The notes under the pieces were generated by a model. It was not told the origin of the DNA. It saw only the letters and a program-made list of their open reading frames with translations, and made no database searches. The position numbers and the translations under genes are program-made. This document shows, piece after piece, positions 1 to 7,967 of a stretch of 7,967 nt of DNA (its first letter is position 1; each line of letters opens with the position of its first letter). The DNA comes from a virus. Lineage: Duplodnaviria; Heunggongvirae; Uroviricota; Caudoviricetes. The stretch lies in the IMG/VR virus record IMGVR_UViG_2695420699_000019, one strand, 5' to 3'.

Positions 1-483
1 ATGACGAAGAAAAAAGCACATAAACCTGGTTCAGCGACCATCGCGCTTAACAAGCGCGCCCGTCACGAATACTTTATCGAAGAAGAGTTCGAAGCGGGAC
101 TTGCCCTGCAAGGCTGGGAGGTTAAATCCCTGCGCGCAGGAAAAGCCAATATCAGCGACAGCTACGTCCTTCTGCGTGACGGAGAGGCATTTCTGTTTGG
201 CGCTAACATCACGCCAATGGCCGTGGCCTCCACGCATGTGGTGTGCGATCCTACCCGTACCCGCAAGTTACTTCTCAACCAGCGCGAACTGGACTCATTG
301 TACGGTCGCGTCAATCGAGAAGGCTATACCGTAGTGGCGCTCTCCCTGTACTGGAAAAATGCCTGGTGCAAAGTGAAAATCGGCGTCGCCAAAGGTAAAA
401 AACAGCACGATAAACGTTCAGATATCAAAGAACGCGAATGGCAGGTGGATAAAGCACGTATCATGAAAAACGCCCACCGTTAA
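1..483 (+). CDS. smpB: SsrA-binding protein SmpB (160 aa)
   Basis: Complete ORF, ATG at 1 and TAA at 481-483. The translation ([25 protein letters not shown]...[10 protein letters not shown]) matches E. coli SmpB as I recall it, and it sits directly upstream of ssrA as in Enterobacteriaceae. The start may be the true start or the window may simply begin at the ATG. Confidence 0.97.
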
Positions 484-674
484 ACCTGCACTCCAATTAT
501 TGACCAGTTCCTCACCGCGCCTCCCTCTCCGGCGGCGCGAATCAACATCTTATTGGCTATCACATCCGACACAAATGTTGCCATCCCATTGCTTAATCGA
601 ATAAAAATCAGGCTACATGGGTGCTAAATCTTTAACGATAACGCCATTGAGGCTGGTCATGGCGCTCATAAATC

Positions 675-691
675 TGGTATACTTACCTTTA
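675..691 (+). promoter_or_regulatory. Probable ssrA promoter: extended -10 (TGgTATACT, 675-683), predicted transcription start near 691
   Basis: TG at 675-676, one spacer base, then TATACT at 678-683. This ends 7 nt before 691, consistent with a short 5' leader removed from pre-tmRNA by RNase P. No good -35 hexamer at 17-bp spacing, which fits an extended -10 promoter. Sequence-pattern call only. Confidence 0.45.
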
Positions 692-697
692 CACATT

Positions 698-1060
698 GGG
701 GCTGATTCTGGATTCGACGGGATTTGCGAAACCCAAGGTGCATGCCGAGGGGCGGTTGGCCTCGTAAAAAGCCGCAAAAAATAGTCGCAAACGACGAAAA
801 CTACGCTTTAGCAGCTTAATAACCTGCTTAGAGCCCTCTCTCCCTAGCCTCCGCTCTTAGGACGGGGATCAAGAGAGGTCAAACCCAAAAGAGATCGCGT
901 GGAAGCCCTGCCTGGGGTTGAAGCGTTAAAACTTAATCAGGCTAGTTTGTTAGTGGCGTGTCCGTCCGCAGCTGGCAAGCGAATGTAAAGACTGACTAAG
1001 CATGTAGTACCGAGGATGTAGGAATTTCGGACGCGGGTTCAACTCCCGCCAGCTCCACCA
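698..1060 (+). ncRNA. ssrA: tmRNA (transfer-messenger RNA, 10Sa RNA), 363 nt
   Basis: Starts GGGGCTGATTCTGGATTCGACGGG and ends GGGTTCAACTCCCGCCAGCTCCACCA (tRNA-Ala-like acceptor/T-arm with encoded CCA). Contains the internal tag reading frame. Length and sequence match E. coli ssrA as I recall it. Confidence 0.97.
787..819 (+). other. tmRNA mRNA-like domain: tag-peptide reading frame ANDENYALAA followed by TAA (a second in-frame TAA at 820-822)
   Basis: GCA AAC GAC GAA AAC TAC GCT TTA GCA GCT TAA read directly from the sequence; this is the canonical E. coli proteolysis tag (the first Ala comes from the charged tmRNA). Confidence 0.9.
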
Positions 1061-1189
1061 ATCATGATTGGACGGTGTAAGGACAACACCAACAAAAACA
1101 GGAAGTTAGCAGTCTCAGCAGGACACCGACCAGACGGTGAGGAGACAAAAAAGGATACGCAAAGGAGCCGCGGCTCTCAAGTGTGAAAG

Positions 1190-1217
1190 AAGCCCGCAAA
1201 TTGCGGGCTTTTTTATT
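1190..1217 (+). terminator. Rho-independent terminator-like hairpin downstream of ssrA
   Basis: Perfect GC-rich inverted repeat GCCCGC (1192-1197) / GCGGGC (1203-1208) with loop AAATT, followed by TTTTTTATT (1209-1217). It lies about 130 nt past the mature tmRNA 3' end. It may terminate the ssrA precursor or insulate the downstream cargo operon. Confidence 0.5.
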
Positions 1218-1269
1218 GATCAGTCAACAATAAACAGTAACCGAATGAGAATTTAATAAGGATATTCAT

Positions 1270-2301
1270 ATGGAAGCTACTGTGGATTCGATTGATTTTC
1301 TGATCCGTAGTGAAGATGATTTTCTAAACTTTCTGGAAGAAATGAAAGCCCGAGAGGGGCTTGATTCTAAAGAGTTTATTTTCCCTAACGTAAAGTTTGC
1401 AGGCTGGCCATCCTTAGACATAAATGTAAAAGGAGAGCGGTATCATTCATCAATTACATCAGCAATGTTGTTTGGTATGTCAATGCTCAACGAGGAGATA
1501 CAGCGGGCGTTTGCAACCATACGATACGGATCGCAGAATCTTCAACGCTTGACTAATGAAGACAAGCAACGACTTGATATAAATTTTAAAATTAGCGAAG
1601 GTTCTAGTGATGCGGAAGGCACCACTGACAAGATCATCAACGCAGTAACTGATTTTTTGCGAGATACTATGTCTGGACTGAACGGCTGGCAGAAAATGCT
1701 TGTTATAATCACAATGGTTGGCGCGGCCAGCACATGTGGTTATCACTACATTTCAGAAAATGCCGTAACAGAAAGACATGCAACTGATCGGCAGGTTGAA
1801 ATTGCAAAAACCACATCCGATGGCATAAACAAAGCCATAGAAGCAACATTAGATTATAAAATCTATGGGAAATCAGCGATTAGCGATAAAGTTACTAGTC
1901 ACGGACAAGCAGGTAAAAGTGCTTTAGTGAAGCAATTAGCTGCTGATCCTACTGTCGAAACCGTGACTTTAGGAAATGAGAAACTAACACGACAAGACCT
2001 AAATACCTACAACAGCCGACAATCTGTAGATAGAGAACGTAAAGAACGAACTGATATATTTTCCATCAAAGGTGTAACCAGAACAGGGCCAACAAATCAG
2101 GATATTAATATTAACGTTGTTAGGGTCTCTAATGACGAATGCTTCACAATCAAAGCTTCAGCTGATGTTATCACCCAAGATGAGTTGACAGCTATTGTTG
2201 ACGCTTTGTCAAACAACTCTCATATTAAAATCAGTTACTTAGAGGTAATTGAAAAGGGTGCTGTTTCTATAGGTCAGTTCAACACTATTGTTTCAGAATA
2301 A
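1270..2301 (+). CDS. Hypothetical protein, 343 aa, no family recognised
   Basis: Long ORF with a good RBS (AAGGA at 1258-1262, 7 nt before the ATG). Strongly acidic N-terminus (MEATVDSIDFLIRSEDDFLNFLEEM). One hydrophobic stretch (WQKMLVIITMVGAASTCGY, about residues 140-158) that could be a single transmembrane helix or buried core. No Walker A or other catalytic motif recognised. AT-rich relative to smpB. Confidence 0.8.
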   Translation: MEATVDSIDFLIRSEDDFLNFLEEMKAREGLDSKEFIFPNVKFAGWPSLDINVKGERYHSSITSAMLFGMSMLNEEIQRAFATIRYGSQNLQRLTNEDKQRLDINFKISEGSSDAEGTTDKIINAVTDFLRDTMSGLNGWQKMLVIITMVGAASTCGYHYISENAVTERHATDRQVEIAKTTSDGINKAIEATLDYKIYGKSAISDKVTSHGQAGKSALVKQLAADPTVETVTLGNEKLTRQDLNTYNSRQSVDRERKERTDIFSIKGVTRTGPTNQDININVVRVSNDECFTIKASADVITQDELTAIVDALSNNSHIKISYLEVIEKGAVSIGQFNTIVSE

Positions 2302-2352
2302 TCACTTAACCCCATTTATGTCGGTTGAGGTTATAAGTCACGGAGACCAGAT

Positions 2353-2697
2353 ATGTCCTTAAAGTATGCACATGAAAAATTTCATACTGCAGTACTTACT
2401 CTTGCGGGCCATGGAAGTATTCAAGAACGCTTGATTAATTCGTATGTTTTTAGCCTTGGGCATCTTAAAACAGCCGATGATATTCCAAATGCCTTACAAA
2501 GCAGGTTCGATGAATTATGTAAGGAACTGACTAAGTTTGATGCCACTGGCGATGAGGGGCGAGTTCAAGCAACAGTATCAAAACTTAACGATTTCGAGAT
2601 CAATAAACTGATCGAAGATATTGTCAGTCTTAACGATGATATTTGCATGAAATTGGCTCTGACGGATGAGACTTACCAAGACATACACCAAAGTTAA
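2353..2697 (+). CDS. Hypothetical small acidic protein, 114 aa, no family recognised
   Basis: ORF 51 bp downstream of the 343-aa ORF on the same strand, so probably an operon. RBS GGAG at 2342-2345, 7 nt before the ATG. Net acidic by my residue count (about 19 D/E versus about 10 K/R); looks helical. Followed by a terminator hairpin. Confidence 0.7.
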   Translation: MSLKYAHEKFHTAVLTLAGHGSIQERLINSYVFSLGHLKTADDIPNALQSRFDELCKELTKFDATGDEGRVQATVSKLNDFEINKLIEDIVSLNDDICMKLALTDETYQDIHQS

Positions 2698-2724
2698 TTG
2701 ATTAAATTCAAAAAGTTAACGTTC

Positions 2725-2756
2725 AACCAGCCAGTTTTTGGCTGGTTTATTGTCTT
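2725..2756. terminator. Probable bidirectional intrinsic terminator between convergent genes
   Basis: Perfect 8-bp stem AACCAGCC (2725-2732) / GGCTGGTT (2740-2747) with loop AGTTTTT, then a T-rich tract on the plus strand (TATTGTCTT); on the minus strand a TTTTT run follows a few nt after the stem. Lies between the stop of the 114-aa gene (2697) and the stop of the minus-strand 70-aa gene (2782). Confidence 0.45.
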
Positions 2757-2781
2757 ATAATATTCTTGCTCGAATGATGCA

Positions 2782-2994
2782 CTATTTATGATGTAATCCG
2801 GACATCAGTTCATGGACAAGATTATCTCTTTCATTGTGTTGCAACCGTAAATGCATAGCAAAAAGGTGAGCACTATCCTCATTCCTCTTCAAGCCATGCT
2901 GTTCAAGATACCCGAAAAAACGGCTTCTCTTATCCGCTATTTCCTGAGTCTGACGTGCAACATTTACCAAATTTTCTAGCGTTTTTCTTGGCAT
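2782..2994 (-). CDS. Hypothetical small protein, 70 aa, no family recognised
   Basis: Minus-strand ORF with a near-consensus RBS (AGGAGG, 7 nt before the ATG; plus-strand complement CCTCCT at about 3002-3007). MPRKTLENLVNVARQTQEIADKRSRFFGYLEQHGLKRNEDSAHLF..., no Cys, basic N-terminus. Lies immediately downstream of the invertase on the same strand. Confidence 0.65.
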   Translation of the reverse strand: MPRKTLENLVNVARQTQEIADKRSRFFGYLEQHGLKRNEDSAHLFAMHLRLQHNERDNLVHELMSGLHHK

Positions 2995-3035
2995 ACTATT
3001 TCCTCCTGAAATTGTTGTAATTCACTAGGATATTC

Positions 3036-3062
3036 ATTTTAATTTGTATCATTTAGTACCAA
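3036..3062 (-). promoter_or_regulatory. Possible sigma70 promoter for the 70-aa gene (TTGGTA - 15 bp - TAAAAT on the minus strand)
   Basis: Minus-strand reading: -35 TTGGTA (complement of 3057-3062), 15-bp spacer, -10 TAAAAT (complement of 3036-3041), about 40 nt upstream of the start codon. Pattern match only; the spacer is short. Confidence 0.2.
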
Positions 3063-3192
3063 AACCGCTATCAATTAACAAAGCCATCGTTGTGGTTTAC
3101 CTTGCAGCCGTTTTTTGTCATTGACTCTATGTGAAAATAATGAATCATCATGAGATTGGCTCACACGTTCTTGAATTCGACGAGCTGTGTCT

Positions 3193-3747
3193 TTATTTAT
3201 CTCCTGCCGGAAACCTCTGATACAAAGTCGATACGCCAACATCATAGATAATCGCAACTTTCTGGCGCGGAACTCCTGATGCAATTAATCGTCCGGCTTG
3301 TGCCCATTGTTCTGGTGTAAGTTTGGGACGACGTCCACCAATTCGTCCCTGTGCGCGAGCAGCTTCCAGTCCAGCTTTTGTTCGTTCAACAATCAGTTCT
3401 CGTTCCATTTCAGCCAGGGCCCCCATCACATGAAAGAAAAAGCGCCCCATTGGGGTACTGGTATCAATTGAATCCGTCAGACTACGAAAGTTGATGCCTC
3501 GTTCGCGCAACTCCTCCACCAGCACGACAAGATGCCGCATACTGCGCCCCAGTCGGTCCAGTTTCCAGACCACCAGCGTATCGCCTGCCGATAATGTCCT
3601 GAGCAGTTTTTTCAGTCCCGGCCTTTCGGACTTTGTACCGCTTATCTTGTCTTCAAAAATCAGCTCACATCCTGCACAGTTCAGCGCATTACGTTGTAGA
3701 TCTGTGTTCTGGTCATTTGTTGATACGCGTACATAGCCAATAAGCAT
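3193..3747 (-). CDS. Serine-recombinase DNA invertase, Gin/Pin/Cin/Hin (Din) family, 184 aa
   Basis: Translation from the Met at 3747: MLIGYVRVSTNDQNTDLQRNAL...DTLVVWKLDRLGRSMRHL...GRFFFHVMGALAEMERELIVERT...GRIGGRRPKLT...YDVGVSTLYQRF. Contains the catalytic-serine motif YVRVSTNDQ and a C-terminal HTH region, and is close to e14 Pin/Mu Gin as I recall them. RBS GGGGGA 6 nt before this ATG. The ORF track's longer start (3783, MASFLLLSGGST...) is probably not used. Confidence 0.93.
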   Translation of the reverse strand: MLIGYVRVSTNDQNTDLQRNALNCAGCELIFEDKISGTKSERPGLKKLLRTLSAGDTLVVWKLDRLGRSMRHLVVLVEELRERGINFRSLTDSIDTSTPMGRFFFHVMGALAEMERELIVERTKAGLEAARAQGRIGGRRPKLTPEQWAQAGRLIASGVPRQKVAIIYDVGVSTLYQRFPAGDK

Positions 3748-3801
3748 GGTAGATCCCCCTGACAAAAGCAGGAATGATGCCATTTGCTCGTTATTTCTGC
3801 A

Positions 3802-3827
3802 TTTTCATAAACGTTGGTTTGGGAGAA
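3802..3827 (+). other. Din-type 26-bp recombination crossover site (site a): TTTTCATAAACG-TT-GGTTTGGGAGAA
   Basis: Two imperfectly symmetric 12-bp half-sites around a central TT; resembles hix/gix sites (hixL as I recall: TTCTTGAAAACC-AA-GGTTTTTGATAA). Lies 55 bp upstream of the invertase start, as in Mu gin/gixR. The right half-site encodes the conserved GLGE junction of the tail-fibre cassettes. Confidence 0.6.
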
Positions 3828-4040
3828 GCGGCAAAACGGAATGTGGGCAACGGGGAAAACCAAATCCCTGATATGTCTTTCTGGACGGTTACTGGTGGCA
3901 ATGGAAATTTTGTGATTCGTCAACCTGACGGGCTAATCACTCAGATGGTTACTGTAAGTATAAGTGGTCCAGTGGCGATGAATGGAATGACTGATAATGC
4001 TTATGCCATTACAGGTTCTAATAAGTCTTATATTGCCACA
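3828..4040 (+). pseudogene. Fragment of a tail-fibre variable cassette (first 71 codons only), identical to the start of the cassette at 5998-6210
   Basis: Region 3814-4040 is an exact copy of 5984-6210 (encodes [71 protein letters not shown]). It stops abruptly at 4040, where sequence from inside the invertase gene begins. Confidence 0.6.
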
Positions 4041-4367
4041 ACCCATCACATGAAAGAAAAAGCGCCCCATTGGGGTACTGGTATCAATTGAATCCGTCAG
4101 ACTACGAAAGTTGATGCCTCGTTCGCGCAACTCCTCCACCAGCACGACAAGATGCCGCATACTGCGCCCCAGTCGGTCCAGTTTCCAGACCACCAGCGTA
4201 TCGCCTGCCGATAATGTCCTGAGCAGTTTTTTCAGTCCCGGCCTTTCGGACTTTGTACCGCTTATCTTGTCTTCAAAAATCAGCTCGCATCCTGCACAGT
4301 TCAGCGCATTACGTTGTAGATCTGTGTTCTGGTCATTTGTTGACACACGTACATAGCCAATAAGCAT
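4041..4367 (-). pseudogene. Truncated second copy of the DNA invertase (N-terminal 109 codons only)
   Basis: 4042-4458 repeats 3422-3838 with 4 substitutions. It encodes MLIGYVRVSTNDQ...GRFFFHVMG, then runs into unrelated antisense tail-fibre sequence (CGNIRLIRT...). Lacks the C-terminal part of the invertase including the DNA-binding HTH. Confidence 0.85.
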
Positions 4368-4421
4368 GGTAGATCTCCCTGACAAAAGCAGGAATGATGC
4401 CATTTGCTCGTTATTTCTGCA

Positions 4422-4447
4422 TTTTCATAAACGTTGGTTTGGGAGAA
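4422..4447 (+). other. Din-type crossover site (site b), same sequence and orientation as site a
   Basis: Part of the duplicated unit, 620 bp offset from site a: TTTTCATAAACG-TT-GGTTTGGGAGAA. Confidence 0.6.
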
Positions 4448-4807
4448 GCGGCAAAACGGGATGTAGGGACAGGGGAAAATCAGATACCGGACATGGCCTC
4501 TTTTGCCAGTGGTGATGGATGGATGAAATTACCCAACGGTAAAATTCTGCAATATGGTCGAGGCGAGGCTATGCCGAAATTATCGACGCAAACAATGAGG
4601 ATTACATTTCCTATCCCTTTCCCTAAAAAAGCGGACTGCGCCATTCTTACCCATTCTGGTGATGGCGGTGCGCCTTTAGGCGCTGGGCGAGGGTTCGTGA
4701 TGACTGCAGAAGGCCCTACGTTAACCGGCTTTAATTCTGCTTACAGAACGTCATCAACCAGTGACACGGTATCTATGCATTACAGTTGGTGGGCTGTTGG
4801 TGAGTAA
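4448..4807 (+). CDS. Tail-fibre C-terminal variable cassette B (silent; no constant 5' part attached)
   Basis: In frame with the GLGE junction of site b: ...[54 protein letters not shown]...HYSWWAVGE, TAA at 4805-4807. Same N-terminal junction motif as the other cassettes but a different C-terminal (receptor-binding) sequence. The upstream ATG at 4394 has poor RBS context and lies antisense to the invertase copy. Confidence 0.65.
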   Translation, partial: AAKRDVGTGENQIPDMASFASGDGWMKLPNGKILQYGRGEAMPKLSTQTMRITFPIPFPKKADCAILTHSGDGGAPLGAGRGFVMTAEGPTLTGFNSAYRTSSTSDTVSMHYSWWAVGE

Positions 4808-4827
4808 TTTTATTCAGGGTGATTTAT

Positions 4828-5688
<861 letters not shown>

Positions 5689-5694
5689 TAATCC

Positions 5695-6438
5695 ATGCAT
5701 CGTATAGACACGAAAACCGCGCAGAAGGATAAGTTCGGCGCGGGTAAGAACGGTTTTACCCGTGGTAACCCCCAGACCGGCACACCTGCCACCGATCTGG
5801 ATGATGACTACTTTGACATGTTGCAGGAAGAACTCTGCAGCGTGGTGGAGGCATCCGGTGCCAGCCTGGAGAAGGGGCGGCATGACCAGCTGCTTACCGC
5901 GCTTCGTGCGCTGCTGTTAAGCCGCAAGAATCCGTTTGGCGATATCAAATCTGATGGCACGGTGAAAACGGCTCTCGAAAACCTTGGTTTGGGAGAAGCG
6001 GCAAAACGGAATGTGGGCAACGGGGAAAACCAAATCCCTGATATGTCTTTCTGGACGGTTACTGGTGGCAATGGAAATTTTGTGATTCGTCAACCTGACG
6101 GGCTAATCACTCAGATGGTTACTGTAAGTATAAGTGGTCCAGTGGCGATGAATGGAATGACTGATAATGCTTATGCCATTACAGGTTCTAATAAGTCTTA
6201 TATTGCCACAGCCACATTGCCCTTTGTATTTCCTAATAAGGTACTGGGCGTTATCCCTCTGGTATCAACAACAGCCTATGGTGGTGTATCCAGTAATATT
6301 ACAGGTTCATACGCGACGGCGGTTTGTTCTTTTGCCGCTGTCCGGGGGAATAATACGATTGTATTCAAAGTCGACAAACCACTGAATGCAGCCTTTCCTT
6401 CAGATACCAGCGTCTCAGCGTTAATCATTGGACGGTAA
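5695..6438 (+). CDS. Short side-tail-fibre protein (247 aa): constant N-terminal part fused through crossover site c to variable cassette C (the expressed cassette in this orientation)
   Basis: ATG at 5695 with RBS GGAG 6 nt upstream. N-terminal 97 aa ([21 protein letters not shown]...[10 protein letters not shown]), then the variable part ([19 protein letters not shown]...SALIIGR). The junction motif L-G-L-G-E resembles the constant/variable junction of lambda Stf and Mu S; size and context resemble e14 StfP (from memory). Confidence 0.8.
5972..5997 (+). other. Din-type crossover site (site c): CTCTCGAAAACC-TT-GGTTTGGGAGAA, inside the tail-fibre gene at the constant/variable junction
   Basis: Right half-site and centre identical to sites a and b; the left half-site differs and resembles the hixL left half (TTCTTGAAAACC, from memory). 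It sits where constant and variable tail-fibre parts are joined, as gixL does in Mu. Confidence 0.65.
5984..6210 (+). repeat. Exact 227-bp direct repeat, partner at 3814-4040
   Basis: Manual comparison shows identical sequence across the right half of the crossover site and the first 71 codons of cassette C. Confidence 0.85.
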
Positions 6439-6440
6439 TA

Positions 6441-6884
6441 ATGAACTCAGTATTCTTTTCACCCGGAAGTAAAAGTTTTTATCTACAAGAATTGTTTCCA
6501 GAATATGAGGATGCGGGAACGCTTCCAGATGATGTTATTGAAATTACCCGAGAAACATATGAGCAATTTCTTGGGCTGCATCCAGAAGGGAAAGAAATTG
6601 GCGCTGACAGTTCAGGACGGCCAATATGGATTAATTCCCCACCGCCTTCAAAAGAGGATGAGGTGTTGATGGCTGAAATGAAAAAAATATCTTTGGTTTC
6701 AGAAGCCAATACCTACATCAATACCCATCAGTGGCCTGGCAAAGCTGCTATTGGTCGTCTGAAAGGTAACGAGCTGGAGCAATATAATTTATGGCTGGAT
6801 TATCTGGACGCACTGGAACTGGTTGATCCCTCCAGTGCTCCAGATATTGAATGGCCTACGCCTCCGGCAGTTCAGGCCAGATGA
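6441..6884 (+). CDS. Tail-fibre assembly protein (Tfa), cassette C partner, 147 aa
   Basis: Starts 2 nt after the tail-fibre stop (TAATAATG). Ends ...[31 protein letters not shown], typical of lambda Tfa / Mu U chaperones. Confidence 0.8.
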   Translation: MNSVFFSPGSKSFYLQELFPEYEDAGTLPDDVIEITRETYEQFLGLHPEGKEIGADSSGRPIWINSPPPSKEDEVLMAEMKKISLVSEANTYINTHQWPGKAAIGRLKGNELEQYNLWLDYLDALELVDPSSAPDIEWPTPPAVQAR

Positions 6885-7458
6885 CATTCGGCGCGGTGCT
6901 GGTATCTGTTGCCGTCACCGCGTCAATGTAATCCAGCACAGCGTTAAGCTGGGTTGTTTCTGCCTGCGTCAGTTTCCGTCCGGCCTGTAATTTCAGCTGA
7001 ATCAGACTGATGGAAGCCATTGCAGCATCAATCAGTGACTGGCGCTGTGCTTCTGCCGCGTCTACTGCGGCGCTATGCTGTGCCTCAGTATCGGTTACCC
7101 ATTTCTCACCATCCCATTTATCGTATGGAGATAAAGGGGCGATAGTGGTTGTATTTTCAGGGTAATCACCCGGAGCTTTGATTTCTTTTGATTCTCCTGT
7201 TTCTGTGCTAAAGACGATTTCACCACGATGGTCTGGCACATATTCCCATGAGTTAAAATCTGCAGAACGGCAAATTGCATACCCAGTTTTGTATGAGCCA
7301 GGAGCATCTAAACAGGAACATGCCGGAATGCCGACACCCACAGCAAGATATTCAGTTGATGTGAAAATATATTCCCGTGTTTCACCATCATAGTTATAAA
7401 CCGTAATATTTCCTGCCTGGGTGGCGATAAATTCGTTATTTAATACAGCGTAATCCAT
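6856..7458 (-). CDS. Tail-fibre assembly protein (Tfa), cassette D partner, 200 aa, inverted orientation
   Basis: MDYAVLNNEFIATQAGNITVYNYDGETREYIF...WDGEKWVTDTEAQ...DTSTAPNVIWPELPEA, typical Tfa architecture. Its 3' end overlaps the 3' end of the convergent tfa at 6441-6884 by 29 bp. Same length as e14 TfaE as I recall. Confidence 0.8.
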   Translation of the reverse strand: MDYAVLNNEFIATQAGNITVYNYDGETREYIFTSTEYLAVGVGIPACSCLDAPGSYKTGYAICRSADFNSWEYVPDHRGEIVFSTETGESKEIKAPGDYPENTTTIAPLSPYDKWDGEKWVTDTEAQHSAAVDAAEAQRQSLIDAAMASISLIQLKLQAGRKLTQAETTQLNAVLDYIDAVTATDTSTAPNVIWPELPEA

Positions 7459-7967
7459 TATGCAGCCCTCACGATATACGCAAATGCCAGGTTCCGTGGT
7501 CTGGTTTCTTTAATTAAAGAGGAGGCATCAGGTGAACTCACTGATTCAGCACCATTTCTTCCACCAGTGGTATAAGTAAAAACTCTTTCACTGTTAGACC
7601 AGTAATCCACACCAACTGTTTTTGCTGATGAAAAAATGGTTTCATCAGATATAACCTGTTCTATTCCATACGGGATATTAGTAACTGACCCCACTTTTGT
7701 AGGTATTCCATGATTATGAGAAATTACTGCATGCTCTTGATTCGTTAATAAAGTACGACCGCTATCCACTCCACGCCCGTCATCCCAGCCACGAATAAAC
7801 TCACCACGTAAATCAGGCAATTTATTTGTCGGATAAGCCTTTGCCAGTTCCGGGTATTCTTCAGCAGAAAAAGCGGCACCGTTGCATTTCAGCCAGCCTG
7901 TTGGCGGAGTGGCGGAAGGCCACGGAACAGGCACGCCAACGGGTAATGCCGAACCTTCTCCCAAACC
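7458..7967 (-). CDS. Tail-fibre C-terminal variable cassette D (inverted, silent in this orientation); 5' end runs off the window
   Basis: Minus-strand translation (G)LGEGSALPVGVPVPWPSATPPTGWLKCNGAAFSAEEYPELAKAYPTNKLPDLRGEFIRGW...RPRNLAFAYIVRAA resembles the lambda Stf C-terminal region (from memory). Its stop overlaps the start of the downstream tfa (TAATG). It begins with the GLGE junction at the window edge; the M shown in the ORF track is a TTG Leu codon inside the junction. Confidence 0.8.
   Translation of the reverse strand, partial: GLGEGSALPVGVPVPWPSATPPTGWLKCNGAAFSAEEYPELAKAYPTNKLPDLRGEFIRGWDDGRGVDSGRTLLTNQEHAVISHNHGIPTKVGSVTNIPYGIEQVISDETIFSSAKTVGVDYWSNSERVFTYTTGGRNGAESVSSPDASSLIKETRPRNLAFAYIVRAA
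7956..7967 (-). other. Partial Din-type crossover site (site d, right half-site GGTTTGGGAGAA on the minus strand); the rest lies beyond the window
   Basis: Plus strand 7956-7967 is TTCTCCCAAACC, the reverse complement of the conserved half-site. It is inverted relative to sites a, b and c, so c and d form an inverted pair flanking about 2 kb (cassette C + tfa / tfa + cassette D). Confidence 0.5.

Follow-up and report, generated by a model that had tools for sequence, protein, structure and literature searches.

This stretch of DNA raises the question of whether a tail-fibre inversion locus can carry, beside an intact invertase gene, a tandem copy of the 5′ half of that gene. Tail-fibre switches operated by the Hin, Gin, Cin and Pin invertases have long been known, and an enhancer in the 5′ end of the invertase gene is a feature of the family. 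In an earlier note made from the same DNA, a unit of about 620 bp was reported to occur twice in tandem. In our opinion, the tandem duplication is a scaffolding artefact of a short-read draft assembly and not a real feature, a reading to which we give a probability of about 90%.

The window, by which we mean the whole stretch of 7,967 nt that was analysed, is the last 8 kb of the contig CYEQ01000044.1 (31,360 nt) in the draft E. coli assembly GCA_001283285.1. Of the 7967 positions, 7965 are the same in window and contig. At the other two, 4041 and 5583, the window has A where the public record has N, and no further N occurs in the 14 kb of the contig that were retrieved. By comparison of sequence, the window is composed of three separately assembled pieces joined at these Ns: piece a (1-4040), piece b (4042-5582) and piece c (5584-7967). 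Piece a would be the end of an ssrA-linked prophage, with an invertase gene, a crossover site and 213 nt of the cassette Sv1. Piece b would be that portion of a second invertase module which lies near the crossover site: an invertase 5′ half, the site itself, the cassette Sv2, the tail-fibre assembly gene U2 and an IS3-family element into which IS30 has inserted; its counterpart in the close relative 602687 is prophage e14 beside icd, 1.6 Mb away. Piece c would be a tail-fibre inversion segment in the opposite switch state. The features are listed in Table 1.

Table 1. Features of the window, with coordinates, strand and the evidence for each.
Feature	Coordinates	Strand	Evidence
smpB	1..483	+	ORF; smpB by annotation in strain 602687, 100% identical here
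ssrA (tmRNA), attachment region of e14-like prophage	698..1060	+	ARAGORN, tag ANDENYALAA
Pin-type serine DNA invertase, full-length, 184 aa, ssrA-linked	3193..3747	-	Pfam Resolvase 1.5e-51 and HTH_7 3.6e-13
Repeat copy 1: first 109 codons of the invertase, leader, crossover site and initial 12 nt of the cassette	3422..3839	.	
Crossover site 1, invertase-side, 26 bp	3802..3827	.	TTTTCATAAACG TT GGTTTGGGAGAA, read directly
Sv1 tail-fibre variable cassette fragment; right end of piece a	3828..4040	+	Identical to 5998-6210
Scaffold join J1	4041..4041	.	A in window, N in public record
Invertase codons 1-109 only; left end of piece b	4042..4367	-	Reading-frame comparison
Crossover site 2	4422..4447	.	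Identical to site 1
Sv2 tail-fibre variable cassette, gp53-like C-terminal domain	4448..4807	+	Pfam PF21882 1.8e-13
Tail-fibre assembly gene U2, truncated at its 3′ end by an IS3-family element	4828..5227	+	Pfam Caudo_TAP 2.3e-22
IS3-family insertion sequence, left ~343 nt (orfA 5′ part)	5228..5570	+	Pfam HTH_Tnp_1
IS30 terminal inverted repeat, first 12 nt; right end of piece b	5571..5582	.	TGTAGATTCAAT
Scaffold join J2	5583..5583	.	A in window, N in public record
ymfQ-like baseplate gene, 3′ end; left end of piece c	5584..5691	+	Sequence identity
Tail-fibre gene: constant part, crossover site 3, cassette Sv1	5695..6438	+	ORF; annotated in strain 90-1
Crossover site 3	5972..5997	+	CTCTCGAAAACC TT GGTTTGGGAGAA
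Tail-fibre assembly gene U1	6441..6884	+	ORF; annotated in 90-1; Caudo_TAP in CYEQ01000044.1
Tail-fibre assembly gene, inverted, tfaE-like	6856..7458	-	ORF list and annotation comparison
Alternative cassette Sv′, inverted (Collar domain)	7458..7964	-	ORF list and annotation comparison
Crossover site 4, half, inverted	7956..7967	. (inverted)	Public contig stops 2 nt later at central AA

The full-length invertase gene encodes both the catalytic N-terminal part and the HTH C-terminal part that characterize the Hin/Gin/Cin/Pin family. Its counterpart is annotated as pinE in the ssrA locus of 602687 and in NWU_3 and 0-4, the last two being strains in which intact e14-like prophages occupy ssrA. The second copy is without the end of the E-helix and without the HTH. 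Three ORFs between ssrA and pin had no matches in Pfam and PADLOC scans. In piece b, the cassette Sv2 is 100% identical to that of the e14 module of 602687, and the junction between U2 and the left end of the IS (at about 5228) is also present in this e14 locus. The IS3-family portion itself is 100% identical to the IS3-family copies of both the e14 locus and the ssrA locus of 602687. The ymfQ-like 3′ end in piece c is 100% identical to the ssrA locus of 602687 in inverted orientation (6160-6053 of the locus as retrieved) and 99.5% identical to strain 90-1. Further to the right, an inverted pair of crossover sites, 5972-5997 (+) and 7956-7967 plus 2 nt (-), flanks an Sv1-U1-U′-Sv′ segment, and the same inverted-pair layout is found in 602687, 90-1, NWU_3 and 0-4.

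The two repeat copies (3422-3839 and 4042-4459) are direct repeats with a spacing of 620 nt, and differ at 4 of 418 nt (99.0% identity). Three of the mismatches are synonymous third-position changes in the invertase gene, at 3667 (codon 27, TGT/TGC, Cys), 3724 (codon 8, GTA/GTG, Val) and 3727 (codon 7, CGC/CGT, Arg). The fourth, at 3756, is non-coding and lies 9 nt upstream of the invertase ATG. The two invertase reading frames encode the same residues 1-109. The previously reported count of three synonymous differences and one upstream change is therefore accurate. The repeated share of the 620-nt period, on the other hand, amounts to 418 nt. Beyond the 26-bp crossover site the copies retain about 85% identity over roughly 36 nt and are then unrelated: copy 1 continues into the 213-nt Sv1 fragment (3828-4040), copy 2 into a complete and different cassette, Sv2. 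Thus, of the supposed 620-bp unit in tandem, the 418-nt repeat is indeed present, but the cassettes differ past the crossover sites and the base at 4041 is N. Because 4041 is N, the head-to-tail adjacency of the two copies is without support from determined sequence.

Comparison with finished genomes divides the window at the same two bases. Positions 1-4040(43) are collinear with the ssrA locus of 602687 (100% identical over 1-3200), and positions 4041-5570 with the icd/mcrA-adjacent e14 locus of the same strain. In the latter, identity is 100% over 4377-5570, a stretch that contains the crossover site, Sv2, the tail-fibre assembly gene and the left end of the IS3-family element. Positions 5584-5998 again match the ssrA locus of 602687, this time in inverted orientation. 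Both Ns coincide exactly with the breaks in collinearity, which is the mark of a false join. The 100% identity over 4377-5570 agrees with the proposal in the earlier note that the second copy came from a related but distinct element; the physical tandem duplication that accompanied this proposal is not supported. At J1, nt 232 of Sv1 abuts codon 109 of the invertase. Since the homology between the two sides is only 2 nt, no repeat or recombination site explains the junction. Invertase-mediated recombination at a pseudo-site was also considered for J1 and ruled out, as neither side resembles the 26-bp crossover site. At J2, an IS30 end abuts the 3′ end of ymfQ.

The ends of piece b fall at points of repeat divergence. 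It starts 1 nt after the SNP at 3421, where 602687 has C in its ssrA-linked pin but A in its e14 pinE; this SNP is the nearest difference on the left-hand side of the shared stretch. Piece b ends with TGTAGATTCAAT; the two IS30A ends of K-12 have these 12 nt in common and first differ at nt 13. The public contig likewise stops at a repeated element, the central AA of crossover site 4. For the other two ends, 4040 in piece a and 5584 in piece c, no known repeat boundary could be matched, a point against the artefact. By analogy, this pattern of piece ends is the behaviour of a gap filler that extends contig edges. GapFiller extends an edge by single bases, each chosen by majority vote, and gaps stay open where repeats offer competing alternatives (PMC3446322).

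The alleles of the two copies were also compared with those of related prophages, as had been proposed before. At the four variable sites the alleles are exchanged in comparison with 602687 and 0-4: copy 2 has the ssrA-type bases (G, C, A, T) and copy 1 the e14-type bases (A, T, G, C). Such a swap would fit mis-threading of the assembly through the 245-nt identical stretch 3422-3666, for which it is suggestive but not decisive. The type of each copy has to be read with the knowledge that natural mosaic pin alleles exist, namely in NWU_3, which has an Sv2-type cassette beside its ssrA-linked pin. The allele combination of piece a had an exact match in none of the complete genomes examined. The paoD-adjacent prophages of ETEC were tried as a source of the tail of piece a and rejected, their pin being only about 93% identical.

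If J1 were a real junction, it might be expected to recur. Among 5,426 complete E. coli genomes, not one had a contiguous match to a 96-nt probe centred on it. Both halves of the probe occur in 11 genomes, and in all 11 they are 626-630 bp apart and in reverse order, which is the ordinary single-copy arrangement of invertase, crossover site and Sv1. Three complete genomes contain the pinE-Sv2-U2-IS3 module in single copy, 620 bp shorter than in the window. The ssrA prophages of 602687, NWU_3 and 0-4 and the paoD-adjacent prophage of 90-1 each have one invertase and two inverted crossover sites. Exact and N-wildcard searches for J1 in metagenomes and species-representative genomes gave no match. 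The chimeric ORF reported earlier at 3933-4403 is present in the window as supplied. From its likely start it encodes 144 aa, and this product corresponds to exactly one database protein, CTY26103.1, a 144-aa entry annotated as "DNA invertase from prophage CP-933H" and found on CYEQ01000044.1 alone. An annotated protein exists across J1 because the codon GGN specifies glycine whatever the base. The catalytic-domain-only protein that had been envisaged is an entry that exists once and was called across an N. The idea that a truncated pseudogene supplies a second enhancer is not supported either, given that its junction is a scaffold join at N, seen in 0 of the 5,426 complete genomes. What looks like a second enhancer would just belong to the other locus.

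The earlier note had also warned that assembly errors typically arise from long tandem repeats that are nearly identical, and this is the correct explanation. Pin-type invertase genes with near-identical 5′ halves probably occupy two or more loci in the isolate. One of these loci is probably at ssrA, and the other an e14-type module in which Sv2 and a truncated assembly gene are accompanied by an IS3-family element that IS30 interrupts. The 418-nt near-identical stretch common to both invertase genes could then have caused read pairs to link piece b to piece a. One read of such a pair would be anchored in the unique 3′ half of the invertase and its mate would fall in the shared stretch. These pairs would imply an overlap of about 620 nt between a and b, yet the two pieces have no terminal sequence overlap, and they would have been placed end to end with one N. 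Junction-spanning reads would be lacking. In addition, piece a may switch locus inside the identical stretch 3422-3666, and mis-threading of alleles of this kind would strengthen the cross-links between the pieces. The style of the accession and the pattern of Ns point to a greedy paired-end scaffolder followed by a gap filler, presumably of the SSPACE/GapFiller type. According to the paper on the Sanger high-throughput pipeline, SSPACE and GapFiller are greedy and may produce false joins, and joins are marked with N (PMC5320598). Collapse of k-mers in a de Bruijn graph was ruled out as the origin of J1: with only 2 nt shared, the join must come from pair-based scaffolding and not from graph traversal.

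Two other explanations deserve consideration. A real partial tandem might have been generated by illegitimate recombination, or by deletion between once-adjacent modules, with the N standing for one uncalled base. A single N could in principle be just that in a continuous sequence, and rearrangements of this kind occur readily in prophage remnants that contain IS elements. The scaffolder, to judge from the join, had enough read pairs to place b after a, and the four differing sites mean that the genome does contain the invertase 5′ half twice. We nevertheless consider a real tandem very improbable. The uncalled base is precisely the junction base, 4041, and a second N lies exactly at the other break in homology, 1.5 kb away. 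Moreover, both ends of piece b are points of repeat divergence, which are predicted by assembly and not by biology. Finally, the junction is absent from all 5,426 complete genomes and from the other collections, and is carried by one database protein and one contig only. A real tandem would leave a truncated invertase gene, a second crossover site and a second enhancer beside the intact gene. That an intact Pin-type gene lies beside a truncated gene for the catalytic domain only, complete with a promoter region, a crossover site and an enhancer of its own, is hardly to be expected. Were the junction true, the locus would be an array of three direct sites, and switching could be modulated, or deletions driven, by the half-protein or by the additional enhancer.

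It is also conceivable that the order a-b-c is right and that each N is a gap with sequence missing. An e14-type module would then have moved to the ssrA prophage, for instance via invertase-mediated or IS-mediated rearrangement. Cassettes and pin alleles do move between loci in nature, as in NWU_3 with Sv2 at the ssrA-linked pin and mosaic alleles, and 602687 has identical IS3-family copies at both of its loci. However, at the least the remainder of Sv1, additional genes and the 3′ half of the invertase would have to be missing, which is too long a stretch for a short-insert library to bridge. Furthermore, piece c is oriented as the opposite strand of the ssrA locus, and would run back into an invertase gene and not onward. 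We regard this explanation as highly unlikely, and even then the tandem duplication would not exist in the form reported.

With the tandem duplication read as a scaffolding artefact, the underlying biology is ordinary and well known, that is, Pin-type tail-fibre inversion switches in e14-like prophages. The closest known system is Pin/e14 of E. coli K-12. The likeness includes a 184-aa invertase with Resolvase and HTH_7 domains and 94% DNA identity to K-12 pinE, 26-bp crossover sites at the boundary between the constant and variable parts of the tail-fibre gene, and paired cassettes of opposite orientation, each with its own tail-fibre assembly gene. Unlike in K-12, the intact copy belongs to an e14-like prophage integrated at ssrA and not at icd, and the extra half-gene and extra crossover site come from the joining of contigs. 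A candidate further likeness is a pair of Fis-consensus matches in the invertase 5′ end (3663-3677 and 3711-3725), 48 bp apart as expected of the two Fis sites in the enhancer of this family. The evidence from this pair is weak, as the consensus is degenerate enough to match about 19 sites per kb.

The Min system of plasmid p15B and the shufflons invite comparison as well, since 4.2 kb of the scaffold contain four crossover sites along with three different cassettes. In contrast to these systems, three of the four sites here are in direct orientation and separated by scaffold joins, and the loci in complete genomes have two inverted sites and one invertase each. The window also resembles the false joins of SSPACE/GapFiller-type assemblies. 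It shares with them the single Ns at the joins, the location of joined ends at repeat-divergence points, a near-identical repeat common to the ends of neighbouring pieces and a junction absent from finished genomes. This likeness is limited in that the pipeline is here deduced from the accession style and the N pattern.

These observations call for caution in the use of public sequences. The protein CTY26103.1 was translated across a scaffold N. In the window, where the N is shown as an ordinary base, the false join resembles a clean junction of illegitimate recombination. Searches for rearrangements in draft assemblies are open to the same error wherever loci are phase-variable or rich in repeats.

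One further observation concerns the cassette Sv1, which is joined both to the invertase-side half-site (3802-4040) and to the constant-side half-site (5972-6210). This double joining may mean that the sequenced culture contained the switch in both orientations, or that a further locus exists. The occurrence of Sv1 on both half-sites, together with the stop of the contig at the centre of a crossover site, fits a mixed population, but two loci could produce the same picture.

An IS3-family element cuts the tail-fibre assembly gene U2 at 5227/5228. Strain 602687 has its U2 gene cut at this very nucleotide in the e14 locus (L001 7417), and the junction is 100% identical between the two sequences. 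The shared junction ties piece b (4042-5582), the part of the contig between the two scaffold Ns, to the e14 module of the 602687 lineage. In E. coli NWU_3 (L007 12193-13651), the ssrA-linked invertase carries e14-type alleles at 3553-3583 and 3724-3756, and a tail-fibre cassette of the Sv2 type adjoins it. Judging from NWU_3, the exchange of cassettes and invertase segments between prophage loci is a natural process.

In the public record (L003), the contig breaks off precisely on the central AA of crossover site 4, which is inverted (window 7956-7967 and the next 2 nt of L003). The variable cassette Sv1 was assembled both beside the invertase-side half-site (3802-4040) and beside the constant-side half-site (5972-6210). 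Together, these observations suggest that the sequenced DNA held the tail-fibre switch in both orientations, or an extra locus.

The database entry CTY26103.1, a 144-aa 'DNA invertase from prophage CP-933H', was called across a scaffold N (window 3933-4367, minus strand). Because the codon at this N, GGN, is read as Gly, the last 35 residues of the protein are antisense tail-fibre sequence.

Within the 5′ end of the invertase gene, a degenerate Fis consensus has two matches 48 bp apart, at distances of about 97 and 145 bp from the centre of the crossover site, and the second invertase copy has the equivalent matches (see table). By position, this candidate pair fits the enhancer of the invertase family, but hits to this consensus occur at about 19 sites per kb.

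Coordinates of ORFs and candidate Fis sites in the window
Feature	Location	Coordinates
ORF	prophage end, ssrA-invertase interval	1270-2301
ORF	prophage end, ssrA-invertase interval	2353-2697
ORF	prophage end, ssrA-invertase interval	2782-2994(-)
Fis-consensus matches	invertase 5′ end	3663-3677, 3711-3725
Fis-consensus matches	second invertase copy	4283-4297, 4331-4345

The IS3-family element is itself interrupted by an IS30 end (TGTAGATTCAAT) directly after AAAAAAGGCTAC (window 5555-5582). In E. coli K-12, IS911A is interrupted by IS30A at the same spot (L006 1030-1053), even though the 5′ ends of the two interrupted elements share only about 80% identity. The spot is a possible hot spot for IS30 insertion, adjoining the A6G frameshift motif.

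The three ORFs between ssrA and the invertase gave no match in Pfam and PADLOC scans, and the block is kept in 41 complete E. coli genomes (coverage at least 80%). The start of ORF 1270 (GCTACTGTGGATTCGATTGAT, window 1276-1296) matches the IS3/IS30 junction (GCTACTGTAGATTCAATnGAT, 5566-5586) at 20 of 23 positions, and the peptide ATVDSID is common to both. Since the junction copy runs across a scaffold N, this likeness probably reflects chance or an IS30-end-like target.
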